Shown here piece by piece: positions 4,420 through 24,590 of a stretch of DNA of 33,906 bases; positions within the stretch are counted from its first letter, which is position 1; each line of letters opens with the position of its first letter. Below the pieces are notes generated by a model. It was not told the DNA's origin. It saw nothing but the letters and a program-made list of their open reading frames with translations, and ran no database searches. The translations under genes and the position numbers were made by a program. Origin of the DNA: Chlamydiales bacterium (GTDB lineage Bacteria; Chlamydiota; Chlamydiia; Chlamydiales; FEN-1388); NCBI GenBank assembly GCA_021372185.1, contig JAJFUY010000239.1:1-33906 (forward strand). Reading direction: 5' to 3'.

Positions 4420-4449
4420 AATAAGAATTTTAGGGCGCTTTCACCAATC

Positions 4450-4510
4450 TTTTCGTTTTTTCATAAACCCCCTAATCGAGTGAGTATGTGGGTTTATGAA
4501 AAAACGAAAA
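4450..4510. repeat. Perfect 21-bp-stem hairpin between plsC and tRNA-Arg; its right arm is part of a 51-nt repeat also found at 30641-30691
   Basis: ttttcgttttttcataaaccc (4450-4470) is the exact reverse complement of gggtttatgaaaaaacgaaaa (4490-4510), with a 19-nt loop. Confidence 0.7.
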
Positions 4511-4540
4511 TCTTAGCAAAATCGCCCAAAAATTCTCAAG

Positions 4541-7449: not shown

Positions 7450-9267
7450 TTACGAGCTACCTTCTGAGAGTTTTAAAACAGACATAAAGGCAGATTGGGG
7501 GATATTTACCTTACCAATTTCCTTCATGCGTTTTTTACCTTCTTTTTGCTTTTCCCAAAGTTTTTTCTTACGCGTAATATCACCGCCATAGCATTTGGCA
7601 GTAACGTTTTTGGTAATAGCGCGGATTGTTTCTCGAGCGACTACTTTTCCGCCGATTGCAGCTTGTATTGGTACGCGGAAGAGCTGCTGTGGGATCACTT
7701 CTGCTAGTTTTTCGCAGATAGCACGGCCGCGGCTTTCGGCTTTAGAGCGGTGTATAAGGCAGCTGAAGGCATCTACTGGCTCTTCGTTTACACGAATTTC
7801 TAGTTTGATGATGTCGCCATCTTCATAGCCATCAAATTCATAGTCAAATGAGGCATAGCCTTTACTTACAGATTTTAGTCTGTCGGCAAAGTCGGTTACA
7901 ATTTCGTTTAATGGCAGCTTGTAGGTAACCATGAGGCGTTTTGGATCAAGTGTTTCCATCTTGACACAAGTGCCGCGCTTTTCCATTGCCAAGTTCATAA
8001 CGGCGCCTAAGTAGTCTGCCGGCACGATGATGTGTGATTTTACCCAAGGCTCTTCTACCCAGCTGATGTGAGACGGGTCAGGATAGTGGGCAGGGTTATC
8101 AATCTGTACTACAGAGTTATCATTTAAGATGAACTTATAGATAACGCTAGGGGATGTTGTGATGATATCTAAGTTAAATTCACGGCTAATACGCTCTACA
8201 ACAATTTCTAGGTGTAAAAGTCCTAAGAAGCCGCAACGGAAGCCAAAGCCAAGTGCCGTACTACTTTCTTGCTCAAGGTGAAGCCCAGAGTCATTTAGCT
8301 GCAATTTGGCTAGTGCATCTCTAAGTGGTTCAAAGTCGGTAGAATCCATAGGATAGATACCGGCAAAAACGACAGGATTTTTTACTTCAAAACCAGGTAG
8401 GGGCTCTTTTACAGGAAATTTAAGAAGCGTAACTGTATCGCCAACTCGTACATCTTTTGGATTTTTGATGTTCGCCACAAAATAGCCCACTTCTCCGGTG
8501 CGAAGAGCGTCTACAGGCTTTTGCTGGGGCGAAAAGATGCCAACTTCGTTAATTTCGTATGATTTACCCGTGCCCATTAGCAAAATTTCTGATCCGCGCT
8601 TCATTTCACCTGATAATATGCGAATATAGACCATGATCCCGCGGAAGTTATCAAAGTGAGAGTCAAAGACTAAGGCTTTAAGAAGGTTGTCTGTACTTTG
8701 TTCTGGAGCTGGTATGTGGGTTACTACACGCTCGAGAATGTCTTCAATGCCAATACCAGTTTTAGCAGAACAGGTAATGGCTTCTTCTGGAGATACTGCA
8801 AGGGCTTCTTCTAGCTGCTGTAATACAGAAGGAAGGTCAGCTGTTGGCAGGTCAATTTTGTTGATGACGGGGATGATGGCAAGGTTTCTTTCTAGTGCTA
8901 GGTGCATGTTAGCCAAACTTTGGGCTTGGAGACCTTGGCCTGCATCTACTACTAAAAGAGCGCCTTCACAGGCGGCTAGTGACCGGGATACTTAATAGGT
9001 AAAGTCCACGTGGCCGGGTGTGTCAATCAGGTTCATCTGATACTTTTGGCCATCTTTTGCTGTATAGTACATGGTAACAGGGTGAGCTTTAATGGTAATA
9101 CCGCGCTCGCGCTCGAGGTCCATGCCGTCTAAAACCTGCTCTTGCATATCACGTTTTGATATGGTGCCGGTGAATTCTAAAAATCTATCTGCCAGAGTCG
9201 ATTTGCCGTGGTCGATGTGGGCAATGATAGAGAAATTTCTTATATGTTTTGTGTCATGTGTAGTCAT
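7450..9267 (-). pseudogene. lepA: Elongation factor 4 (LepA) interrupted by one in-frame TAA (8992-8994)
   Basis: ORFs 8992-9267 and 7450-8916 are in the same frame. Reading through gives [44 protein letters not shown], where the LepA consensus has Glu at the stop (GAA to TAA). The rest is a full-length LepA of about 604 aa. Confidence 0.85.
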
Positions 9268-17292: not shown

Positions 17293-17336
17293 TATAATAT
17301 ATTATTTAATCATAATTGTTTAAATAATATATTATA
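17293..17336. promoter_or_regulatory. Perfect 17-bp inverted repeat (10-bp spacer) in the AT-rich leader or promoter of the BOF gene; operator candidate
   Basis: tataatatattatttaa (17293-17309) is the exact reverse complement of ttaaataatatattata (17320-17336). It lies 10-53 nt upstream of the start at 17283 and contains TATAAT-like hexamers. Confidence 0.3.
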
Positions 17337-17399
17337 CTATTTTATTACAATACTAATGTATATAATGTAATTAATGTATTGTTTGGAGTGTGAACGTCT

Positions 17400-17610
17400 G
17401 CCGAAGGCTTTGGAGTGCGGTAATTTTTTACCGCTCTTAATTTTTGATCACGCACTATATCTTTGATAGCCGCCAATACATACAATAGCCCCACGATATG
17501 AATAAAATGAAACGTGCGTGTACGTTGTGGAAGTTATTGTTAAATCCGTTTGTGGTCGAAAATTAAGAGCGGTAAAAAATTACCGCACTCCAAAGCGAGC
17601 TTACGCTCGC
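17400..17610. mobile_element. MITE-like non-coding element, copy A (~211 bp, ~50-bp terminal inverted repeats)
   Basis: The left terminus gccgaaggctttggagtgcggtaattttttaccgctcttaatttttga is mirrored at the right end (tcgaaaattaagagcggtaaaaaattaccgcactccaaagcgagc...). The interior matches the reverse complement of copy B (24301-24524) with scattered substitutions and one indel block. It has no coding capacity. Confidence 0.65.
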
Positions 17611-17631
17611 AAGCTGCAAATGTCCAAACTC

Positions 17632-17673
17632 TATAAAAAAACAAAAAACCGAATAGATCGAAGATCTATTCGG
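17632..17673 (-). terminator. Rho-independent terminator downstream of tRNA-Leu
   Basis: ccgaatagatc (17649-17659) pairs with gatctattcgg (17663-17673). On the minus strand it is followed by ttttttgttttttt. Confidence 0.8.
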
Positions 17674-17679
17674 TTAGAT

Positions 17680-17762
17680 TGCCGGTGGCCGGACTTGAAC
17701 CGACACCTGGTTGCCCAGAGTAGATTTTGAGTCTACCGCGTCTACCATTCCACCACACCGGC
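17680..17762 (-). tRNA. tRNA-Leu (anticodon CAA), long variable arm
   Basis: The minus strand reads GCCGGTG...GTAGA-CTCAAAA-TCTAC-TCTGGGCAACCAGGT-GTCGG-TTCAAGT-CCGGC-CACCGGC-A. This is a class II cloverleaf. CCA is not encoded. Confidence 0.9.
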
Positions 17763-19354: not shown

Positions 19355-19366
19355 GAAAATTGTTTG

Positions 19367-19567
19367 AGAGTCCTTTAGGACGACTGAACGAAGCCCACCG
19401 TGACTGCAGGGAACGGTGGGAATAGGATACAATAAAAATAGAGCCCGGCTGAGGGCGATTCAATCACGAGATTCAATCGCCCTCAGCCGGGCTCTGATGG
19501 TTTTTTGCTTATTCCCACAGTTCCCTACCGTCACGGTGGGCTTCGTTCAGTCGTCCTAAAGGACTCT
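19367..19567. repeat. 201-bp nested palindromic element between convergent genes (~60-nt outer arms enclosing a bidirectional terminator)
   Basis: 19367-19404 is the exact reverse complement of 19530-19567 (38 nt). Pairing continues with a few mismatches to about 19426 and 19508. Each arm also contains its own small hairpin (cccaccg/cggtggg). Confidence 0.8.
19440..19495. terminator. Bidirectional rho-independent terminator (HAD gene + strand, truA - strand)
   Basis: A 21-bp perfect stem is formed by agagcccggctgagggcgatt (19440-19460) and aatcgccctcagccgggctct (19475-19495). It is followed by gatggtttttt on the + strand and atttttatt on the - strand. Confidence 0.8.
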
Positions 19568-19594
19568 AAAACAAAAGATTTGGTACGAGCGCCC

Positions 19595-24250: not shown

Positions 24251-24300
24251 ATCCGACTAACCTTGCGTCATTCGGCGCAAGGTGTATTTGTTTTGTTTTT

Positions 24301-24524
24301 GACCGAAGGTCTCTGGAGTGCGGTAATTTTTTACCGCTCTTAATTTTTGAGCACACACCGATTTAACAATAACTTCCACAACTTACACGAACGTTCAATA
24401 CTTTGGCTAACCCACTTGTGTCATAGTGTGGGGCTATTGTATGTTTTGGAGGCTATCGTAGATAGAGTGTATGGTCAAAAATTAAGAGCGGTAAAAAATT
24501 ACCGCACTCCAAAGAGCTTCGCTC
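24301..24524. mobile_element. MITE-like non-coding element, copy B (~224 bp), inverted relative to copy A
   Basis: The termini are gaccgaaggtctctggagtgcggtaattttttaccgctcttaatttttga and tcaaaaattaagagcggtaaaaaattaccgcactccaaagagcttcgctc. The interior is the reverse complement of the copy A interior (for example cgatttaacaataacttccacaac and gtggggctattgtatgt). Confidence 0.65.
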
Positions 24525-24590
24525 AATGTGAGAGTGTGTGTGCTAAAGATACACGTGTGCCAAGGCACACGTGTAGTGAAAAAAGAGAAC

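Follow-up and report, generated by a model that had tools for sequence, protein, structure and literature searches.

A family of small non-coding mobile elements with inward-facing, terminator-like hairpins at gene 3′ ends in environmental Chlamydiae

Two long inverted repeats in the window, by which we mean the whole 33,906-nt stretch of Chlamydiales DNA that was analysed, belong to a previously undescribed family of small non-coding mobile elements of environmental chlamydiae. We consider it likely that the two repeats, here called copies A and B, are old members of a non-autonomous MITE family of about 230–280 bp that is found at stem-loops. This estimate covers the account as a whole, namely a transposase acting in trans, duplication of the target stem-loop, arms that terminate transcription, and the niche in which the window copies lie. 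A full-text literature search found no description of MITEs in Chlamydiae.

A Dispersed Family in Uncultured Chlamydiae

When 185,579 species-representative genomes were searched with a 22-nt hairpin core, four uncultured chlamydial MAGs yielded 15 loci. The arms at all of these loci are recovered by a covariance model built from the arm, which also picks up one further, decayed copy in L017, a fifth genome (42.9 and 25 bits), bringing the family to 18 copies in six genomes, two in the window and 16 in five chlamydial MAGs (assemblies CAZEQY, CAYWZU, CAZEGK, CAWAUW and ERZ25039484). The genes flanking the elements show no similarity to the window or, at the element sites, among the MAG loci. 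Within single MAGs, identical cores of 164–194 nt occur at different loci: L004, L008 and L012 share a 194-nt core at 100% identity in one MAG, and L003, L005 and L006 have cores that are likewise 100% identical in another. The same architecture recurs in MAGs of independent projects and on long contigs, and an assembly artefact was rejected on these grounds.

Across the family the copies measure about 230–281 bp, and the ORFs found in the element are spurious only, running out of it and leaving it without coding capacity. Small size (under about 500 bp), lack of coding sequence, terminal inverted repeats (TIRs), dispersed copies and, at loci other than the window copies, flanking duplications together mark the family, by its structure, as a MITE. 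The earlier note on this DNA had argued for a repeat family, as opposed to a local palindrome, and had looked to a wider count of copies; the 16 additional copies in five chlamydial genomes, the sets of identical copies, the target duplications and the absence of the element from orthologous sites bear out the family reading.

Beyond these genomes, a scan of JGI metagenomes with the TIR core gave a single match, an isolated hairpin on an unrelated contig of high GC content, and this was rejected as a family member. Scanning viral contigs revealed no family member, and no match to the family was found in Rfam, the plasmid collection or the phage collection, nor in the sensitive mode of Rfam when the L001 element and its conserved flank were used as the query. 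So far, the family is restricted to one clade of uncultured environmental Chlamydiae.

Arm Architecture and Anatomy of the Window Copies

Alignment of 34 arms from the outside inward indicates that the elements reach beyond the coordinates noted earlier and that their parts follow a common order. From the tip inward, each arm comprises a terminal motif of about 19 nt (consensus (C)TCGAGTTTGGACATTTGC, found at both ends of MAG copies), a hairpin (hairpin 1) that lies within a short variable segment and stops 4 nt short of GAGTGC, and a block that hardly varies, consisting of GAGT, a 7-bp hairpin (hairpin 2) and TCTTAATTTT(C/T)GACCAC; the interior follows the arms. Three outer arm types (alpha, beta and gamma) are not consistently linked to the orientation of the interior, which indicates that the interior can flip between the long TIRs. 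Such flipping accounts for the arrangement of the two window copies, whose interiors share 84% identity and run in opposite orientations (reverse-complement matches of 89–92%).

An inverted-repeat search of the window identified arms of 45 nt and 96% complementarity in copy A (17407–17451 and 17552–17596) and arms at 24299–24387 and 24438–24526 in copy B. All four window arms carry the 35-nt core GGAGTGCGGTAATTTTTTACCGCTCTTAATTTTTG with at most one mismatch (0.00 expected from shuffles), and the hairpin GCGGTAATTTTTTACCGC occurs four times in the window (0.02 expected by chance). A covariance-model search of the window returned the four arms of copies A and B and nothing else, with copy A matched at 17395–17450 on the plus strand and 17553–17611 on the minus strand. 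The ends of copy A were set by homology to the MAG copies, reaching 17631–17634 (Table 1). Its left terminus, degraded by deletions, is reduced to TGTTTGGA..GTGTGAA, and the termini of copy B (GTGTAT.../...ATACAC) are homologous to arms of L013, L014 and L007. Folded as a whole element, copy A reaches −98 kcal/mol (z = −12). Because of their divergence from each other, the degraded left tip of copy A and the lack of a duplication at either site, both window copies look old.

These results retain the core of the earlier description and redraw its outline. Inverted termini that embed a hairpin, a second copy with common termini and interior, and a single indel block between the copies were all recovered. 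The extents, formerly placed at 17400–17610 and 24301–24524, proved too narrow; the TIRs are longer than described and modular, with a second, outer hairpin, and the interior of the second copy is inverted.

Table 1. Positions of the window copies, their parts and adjoining features
Feature	Positions	Strand	Remarks
Copy A, full extent, 255 nt	17380–17634		Left arm alpha-type and degraded; interior; right arm beta-type
Copy A left arm, hairpin 1 (GCC-GAA-GGC)	17400–17408	+	
Copy A left conserved block	17413–17445	+	GAGT, hairpin 2 and T-rich tract TCTTAATTTTT
Copy A left hairpin 2 (GCGGTAA-TTTT-TTACCGC)	17417–17434	+	Terminator reading for transcription from the left
Copy A interior	17446–17557		
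Copy A right conserved block	17558–17590	−	Hairpin 2 (17569–17586) and T-rich tract
Copy A right arm, hairpin 1 (GCGAGC-GTAA-GCTCGC)	17595–17610	−	Given on the inward-reading strand
Copy A right terminal motif TAGAGTTTGGACATTTGC	17616–17634	−	One mismatch against consensus CTCGAGTTTGGACATTTGC
Copy B, full extent, 273 nt	24282–24554		Flush with two different stem-loops
Copy B left arm, hairpin 1 (GACC-GAA-GGTC)	24301–24311	+	
Copy B left conserved block	24316–24348	+	Hairpin 2 (24320–24337) and T-rich tract
Extra block of 16 nt	24405–24420		Present in copy B, not in copy A
Copy B right conserved block	24477–24509	−	Hairpin 2 (24488–24505) and T-rich tract
Copy B right arm, hairpin 1 (GAGC-GAA-GCTC)	24514–24524	−	Given on the inward-reading strand
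111-aa gene	16948–17283	−	Downstream of copy A; L017 orthologue has a weak BOF Pfam match
tRNA-Leu intrinsic terminator	17647–17675	−	13-bp stem and TTTTTGTTTTT; adjoins copy A, not duplicated
tRNA-Leu(CAA) gene	17680–17762	−	Upstream of copy A on the minus strand
Stem-loop ACCTTGCG...CGCAAGGT	24260–24283	+	Just past the stop of the 768-aa UGP-like gene; abuts left end of copy B
Stem-loop ACACGTGTGCC..GGCACACGTGT	24551–24574	−	Just past the stop of the 126-aa gene; abuts right end of copy B

Conserved Pairing in the Arms and the Terminator Reading

Hairpin 2 is paired in 100% of cells in 18 distinct arms, and in the variant GCTGCGA/TCGCAGC three pairs are changed on both sides of the stem. Its covariation score was reached by none of 500 shuffles, slid registers pair in at most 66%, and the variant arms retain a T-tract (TTTTAATTTT). 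All 34 strictly matched arms carry the hairpin together with T(C/T)T(T/C)AATTTT. A consensus scan of copy A finds a terminator-like, inward-facing hairpin 2 in both arms (17417–17434 on the plus strand and 17586–17569 on the minus strand), as the first reading of this DNA had proposed for each terminus. The right conserved block of copy A reads as a terminator for transcription from the right, the side of the tRNA-Leu gene.

Hairpin 1 was scored by register-free tabulation; the MAFFT alignment across arm types is out of register. Of the 34 arms, 33 have it; at least 10 distinct stem sequences occur, and one stem position is A-T, T-A or G-C depending on the arm. On the strand that reads inward, its loops are of the GNA or GNRA type in 24 of 33 arms, comprising GAA (15 arms), GCA (3), GTA, GCAA (3), GTAA and GCGA, and inspection revealed that the point mismatches in the core stem are G.T on that same strand (arms L001+, L007+, L009+ and L010−). 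Some cells of hairpin 1 hold T.T, and these come from optional outer extensions of the stem. Nearest-neighbour DNA folding found no strand asymmetry between GAA and TTC loops; GNA loops are specially stable, and their stability is not captured by the nearest-neighbour model. The loops and the G.T-only core mismatches indicate that the hairpin structure is selected, or at least maintained, on the strand of transcripts that enter the element from outside. That direction is also the one in which the T-tract follows hairpin 2.

As far as sequence comparison can tell, compensatory pairing in both hairpins favours the inward-terminator reading without proving it. The compensatory change in hairpin 2 carries limited weight, because it amounts to essentially one old allele replacement; palindromes can also gain compensatory changes by templated (quasi-palindrome) mutation, without selection. 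The near-invariant flanks of hairpin 2 would suit a protein-binding site no worse than a terminator, and we place the predicted terminator function of the arms at roughly even chances.

A reading that we regard as unlikely, and that deserves to be weighed here, holds that hairpin 2 and its invariant flanks serve mainly as a binding or synapsis site for a transposase or a host DNA-bending protein, in a MITE that does not terminate transcription and is like a terminator only by coincidence. The 33-nt block is nearly invariant in six genomes whose housekeeping proteins are 54–67% identical, while tips and interiors diverge, and this conservation exceeds what a terminator needs; moreover, a stem of only 7 bp, four of them G-C pairs, is followed by an interrupted T-tract (TCTTAATTTT). 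The variant arms argue the other way, since they replace three stem pairs and yet keep both the pairing and the T-tract, which favours structure over sequence-specific recognition of the stem as a duplex. GNA/GNRA loops and G.T-only mismatches on the inward-reading strand similarly point to a single-stranded, direction-dependent feature.

Insertion at Stem-Loops Near Gene 3′ Ends

The family is nearly confined to intergenic DNA at gene 3′ ends. Both neighbours could be resolved for 14 copies, 10 of which lie between converging genes (binomial P = 3e-4 against 25%), nine of these between protein genes and the tenth (L007) between the tmRNA gene and a converging gene. Enrichment of this kind may also reflect tolerance, not targeting (PMC3049150). 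The distance from stop codon to element is typically 33–40 nt on each side, and a locus-specific stem-loop fills the gap.

The tips of the elements are flush with the stem feet of nine different hairpins that are unrelated in sequence, and in young copies the same stem-loop stands on both sides, flush with the tips, as direct repeats of 24–38 nt. These repeats are perfect at L004 (28 nt), L009 (25–27 nt) and L005 (24 nt), and contain one mismatch at L002 (25 nt), two at L010 (28 nt) and three at L007 (38 nt). Inspection of the flanks revealed that most of the repeats are the stem-loop itself (stem, loop and stem of 11+3+11 at L009 and L002, 13+3+13 in the left copy at L005 and 16+4+16 at L007), so the length of the duplication follows the hairpin. 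Because what is duplicated is a whole stem-loop of variable length, we infer that the target is recognised as a DNA structure. The duplicated hairpin at L007 is a real intrinsic terminator, since it lies directly after the tmRNA gene and is followed by GTTTTT; the target hairpins of L004 and L002 have no T-tract.

Three further copies (L014, L015 and L006) have a common stem on both sides with loops that are inverted or different, a difference that needs a secondary event. There is no duplication at L003, L011, the truncated L008 or window copies A and B. Target-site duplications, one of the points that the earlier note had marked for checking, are seen at six MAG copies and missing from both of the copies that it described. 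By placing tandem or triple hairpins at gene ends, the family can mislead the prediction of terminators and small RNAs.

Relatives lack the element at several orthologous sites. At the site of copy B, the spacer of L019 measures 88 nt and contains a single bidirectional terminator hairpin, L024 has an 80-nt spacer with one hairpin, L017 a (GATCTT)n palindrome, and L016 an IS4-family insertion sequence (IS) at the exact position, inside a palindrome; none of the four has a family element there. At the site of copy A, L017 has the tRNA-Leu gene and a different palindromic element, again without a family element. With the E2 gene as anchor, the element at the L010 site is absent from three relatives (L021–L023), in which the intergenic DNA is unalignable and the ancestral hairpin was not recovered. 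The flanking protein chosen at L009 is an orphan with no homologues. A pre-insertion site with the same single hairpin was not found among the compared relatives, which are too diverged, and the duplication is for that reason read from the flanking repeats only. The family marks intergenic hot spots, in that the same spacers carry other palindromic repeats or IS in relatives.

This pattern of sites also bears on the improbable alternative that the repeats are a host-domesticated bidirectional terminator or insulator cassette, spread by recombination or gene conversion and not by transposition. Speaking for such a cassette are the positions of the copies, next to gene 3′ ends and in the gaps of convergent gene pairs, the conserved hairpins, and the failure to find a transposase in the window and the collected loci. 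It is hard to reconcile with perfect 24–28-nt direct repeats that are locus-specific and flush with defined termini, with identical copies at loci that have no flanking homology, and with presence or absence at orthologous sites, all of which argue for cut-and-join insertion and not homologous recombination.

More improbable still is an RNA-level element, be it a retro-mobile RNA or a gene for a structured small RNA, in which the hairpins are selected in the transcript. Such an element would be compatible with the very stable predicted fold and with the confinement of the GNA/GNRA loops and the G.U-compatible mismatches to a single strand in each arm, but no Rfam family matches it and copy A has no internal promoter-like site. 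The two-fold symmetry, in which the two arms have their structure selected on opposite strands, is ill-suited to a single transcript, and DNA transposition is what typically leaves target duplications directly next to inverted termini. Finally, a segmental-duplication relic or chance palindrome confined to the two window sites, suggested by two copies in 34 kb that both lack a target duplication, is refuted by the 16 other copies at unrelated loci in five other genomes; for the core in the window, 0 occurrences are expected by chance.

A Possible Route of Insertion

Under the preferred reading, in which the family transposes into stem-loops, a transposase acting in trans, presumably of the DDE type, would recognise the shape of an extruded stem-loop or cruciform and not its sequence. 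Such an enzyme would join the 3′ ends of the element to the two 5′ feet of the extruded cruciform, and gap repair would then duplicate the whole stem-loop. Insertion would part the native hairpin from its downstream T-tract, leaving the hairpin in front of CTCGAGTTTGG... instead; with the native T-tract displaced in this way, substitute terminators, one per arm, would render the insertion neutral for transcription. The inward hairpin and T-tract of each arm may thus terminate transcripts from either flanking gene, which would both keep the insertion nearly neutral and shield the element. Any read-through RNA would be predicted to fold into a long duplex (−98 kcal/mol), and template switching or conversion at a later stage, inside the long palindrome, may have produced the inverted loops at some loci.

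This specific combination of shape-directed transposition by 5′-foot attack, a 24–38-bp duplication set by the target, and inward terminators with which the element neutralises its own insertion is proposed tentatively, at slightly less than an even chance. In the cruciform model of Wan et al. for IS1272, attack at the 5′ feet (pathway b) would duplicate the whole stem-loop (PMC5678879), the outcome observed in the young copies of the family. Should the shape-directed reading be true, the family would be a transposon with a specialised habitat, the transcription terminator, which it also copies, and would provide a natural data set for what has so far been a hypothetical branch of the IS1272 model (PMC5678879). 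If the arms do terminate transcription, each element would amount to a portable bidirectional insulator and to a mobile element that compensates for the damage of its own insertion.

Search for a Partner and Comparison with Known Elements

The earlier note reported no transposase in the window, and none was found among window ORFs of at least 140 aa. The autonomous partner with matching TIRs that it had hoped for did not emerge: the window and collected loci, about 220 kb in all, yielded neither such a partner nor a transposase with matching ends, and no extra termini and no IS4-like or repeated coding sequence turned up in the collected loci. The IS4-family element of L016 (NF033592, 217 bits) has an ordinary 11-bp duplication. 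Its tip, CATACGCATCAGGCTAA, matches the outer terminus of L011, CATACGCATTAAGCTAA, at 15 of 17 positions. The similarity between L001 and L011, two copies from MFD MAGs, continues for about 230 nt past the L011-type terminus, leaving that terminus ill-defined. The resemblance, limited to these two copies, may be taken as a lead only, and the main terminus type of the family, CTCGAGTTTGGACATTTGC, does not resemble the IS4 tip.

IS1272 and TnSha1 insert in a shape-directed manner at stem-loops, often terminators, whatever their primary sequence and with junctions at the stem feet, and IS1272 deletes or replaces the stem-loop without target duplication (PMC4923244; PMC5678879). The family resembles IS1272 in its stem-loop target and its junctions at the stem feet, a likeness of target choice alone, and differs in that the stem-loop is duplicated instead of deleted. 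Whereas IS1272 is a 1.9-kb autonomous IS with 16-bp inverted repeats, the family consists of non-coding elements of 230–280 bp with arms of at least 60 nt, and its hosts are Chlamydiae in place of the Firmicutes (staphylococci) that harbor IS1272 and TnSha1 of the IS1182 family. By analogy, the family would be a counterpart of IS1272 that duplicates the stem-loop where IS1272 replaces it. ISfinder gives direct repeats of 0–60 bp for the IS1182 family, which would make duplications like those seen here not wholly without precedent.

Correia elements duplicate TA and have TIRs of about 26 bp with outward promoters and an IHF site. The family differs from them in its 24–38-nt stem-loop duplication, its inward terminator-like hairpins and the lack of a promoter-like site in copy A, and membership among Correia elements was rejected on account of the different duplication type and termini. 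What the two have in common is that the Correia elements of Neisseria (CREE/NEMIS) are also small non-coding MITEs with TIRs at many intergenic loci (PMC10969869). Their transcripts fold into long hairpins that are substrates of RNase III, and the elements can alter the expression of neighbouring genes (PMC10969869).

SPRITE is an interspersed terminator-like repeat that is most enriched between converging genes and near the 3′ ends of coding sequences, with no identified IS partner and no established target duplication (PMC3049150). It consists of a single 18-bp duplex with a U-rich tract and has AAAA/TTTT as its only TIRs, unlike the family, whose long TIRs carry a mirror-image pair of terminator-like modules and which also has an interior and clear stem-loop duplications. 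REP/BIME and IS200/IS605-type elements are similar to the family in being short intergenic hairpin palindromes, often at gene 3′ ends. They are 20–40-nt units or hairpin-ended elements without long TIRs or target duplications, mobilised by Y1 (RAYT/TnpA) enzymes, and the REP-type palindromes are short and tagged with GTAG/CGTC. Identity with REP/RAYT or IS200/IS605-type elements was rejected because the family has long TIRs and long duplications.

Neighbourhood of the Window Copies

On the minus strand, copy A lies between the tRNA-Leu terminator and promoter-like hexamers (17294–17324) of the 111-aa BOF-like gene. Its right tip comes immediately after the T-run that follows the tRNA-Leu terminator hairpin, at 12 nt from the foot of the stem; both the tRNA-Leu(CAA) gene and its terminator were confirmed, in agreement with the position assigned to copy A from the start. 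That copy A insulates the promoter of the BOF-like gene is plausible as a prediction only. For copy B, the neighbours are the UGP-like gene and the 126-aa gene, which converge on it. Both sites fit the 3′-end niche of the family, the duplication having been lost or never present. The best homologue of the UGP-like protein is 67% identical, which marks the window lineage as a poorly sampled chlamydial one. Other genes in the window include SWIB, Pkn-type kinase and SET-domain genes.

Palindromic Repeats in the Window Spacers

The intergenic spacers of the window contain several distinct palindromic repeat families (table). A near-perfect, purine-rich palindrome (CAACGCAGAGAAAGCAGAGACGCAAAGACACAGAG...) is flanked by a gene encoding a 177-aa acetyltransferase-like protein and a YebC-like gene, and no other copy of it was found in the compared DNA. 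Another palindrome directly adjoins tRNA-Arg(CCT), and a related half-copy of it elsewhere in the window adjoins a further palindrome, part of which has a weak match in L001, a locus from the MFD MAG.

A second type of MITE-like palindrome, unrelated to copies A and B, separates HAD-hydrolase from truA, two convergent genes; its arms enclose a hairpin followed by a T-run. No further copies were detected among the compared loci. The two genes overlap in L017 and lie 48 nt apart in L025, both loci from relatives, so this palindrome is a lineage-specific insertion.

Features of the window and of loci from other chlamydial genomes (L numbers)
Feature	Locus	Positions	Description
HAD-hydrolase/truA palindrome	window	19360-19574	65-nt arms, 94% complementarity
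Enclosed hairpin	window	19440-19495	26-bp stem
Purine-rich palindrome	window	28556-28681	62-nt arms (94%)
tRNA-Arg(CCT) palindrome	window	4424-4536	47-nt arms
Its half-copy	window	30627-30691	78-82% identity
Palindrome beside half-copy	window	30475-30606	
Weak match to its part	L001	3537-3595	
IS4-family IS	L016	4992-6664	1,559 bp, 27-nt TIRs
Hexamer palindrome	L017	10275-10410	
Duplicated target	L012	1-13, 295-322	
tRNA-Leu/BOF palindrome	L017	3815-3925	~110 nt
Region of L001/L011 similarity	L001	2930-3117	
Region of L001/L011 similarity	L011	665-868	
Family copy	L017	17125-17329	
Family copy	L019	17003-17243	
lepA (EF-4)	window	9267-7450	minus strand
lepA in-frame TAA	window	8992-8994	
Element-flanking gene	L002	5616-6776	
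Element-flanking gene	L006	1562-3118	

Occupants of the Equivalent Sites in Relatives

Exactly at the position equivalent to copy B, L016 carries an IS4-family insertion sequence that encodes a 475-aa transposase, shows an 11-bp duplication (CCTGCATATCC) and lies within a perfect palindrome with 38-bp arms. At 15 of 17 positions, the tip of this insertion sequence matches the outer terminus of the L011 family copy. The UGP-downstream spacer of L017 is filled by a long palindrome assembled from repeated hexamers, (GATCTT)n / (AAGATC)n, and the target duplicated around the family element in L012 is sequence of the same kind. Where the window has copy A, L017 carries a palindromic element that differs from the family (CACCACTGAGCCACTGAGATCACCGAGGG ... 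CTCGGTGACTCTGTGGT); elements seem to have landed repeatedly in the tRNA-Leu/BOF spacer.

Family Copies in Other Genomes

Similarity between the two MFD MAG copies (L001 and L011) extends ~230 nt past the left end of the element and includes a well-conserved segment, ACTGCGG.AGCAGTT.AAGTGGGAAGCCCCGCGTGAAATGAAAG, for which no Rfam match was found. This extension could belong to a larger composite unit or represent a separate, second repeat. The L017 and L019 copies both lie downstream of the same orthologous gene (~301-305 aa), differ in their alleles of hairpin 2 (the conserved inner hairpin of each family arm) and have interiors that cannot be aligned. Either both descend from one very old insertion, or the same terminator was hit independently in each genome.

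Additional Observations

The window lepA gene contains an in-frame TAA at a position expected to be a conserved Glu codon, one base from GAA. The gene could be a pseudogene or be recoded at this codon, or the sequence could contain an error. Among the MAGs, genes flanking the elements in L002 and L006 encode eukaryote-like proteins, with collagen triple-helix repeats and an F-box domain, which fits a life in association with amoebae or protists.
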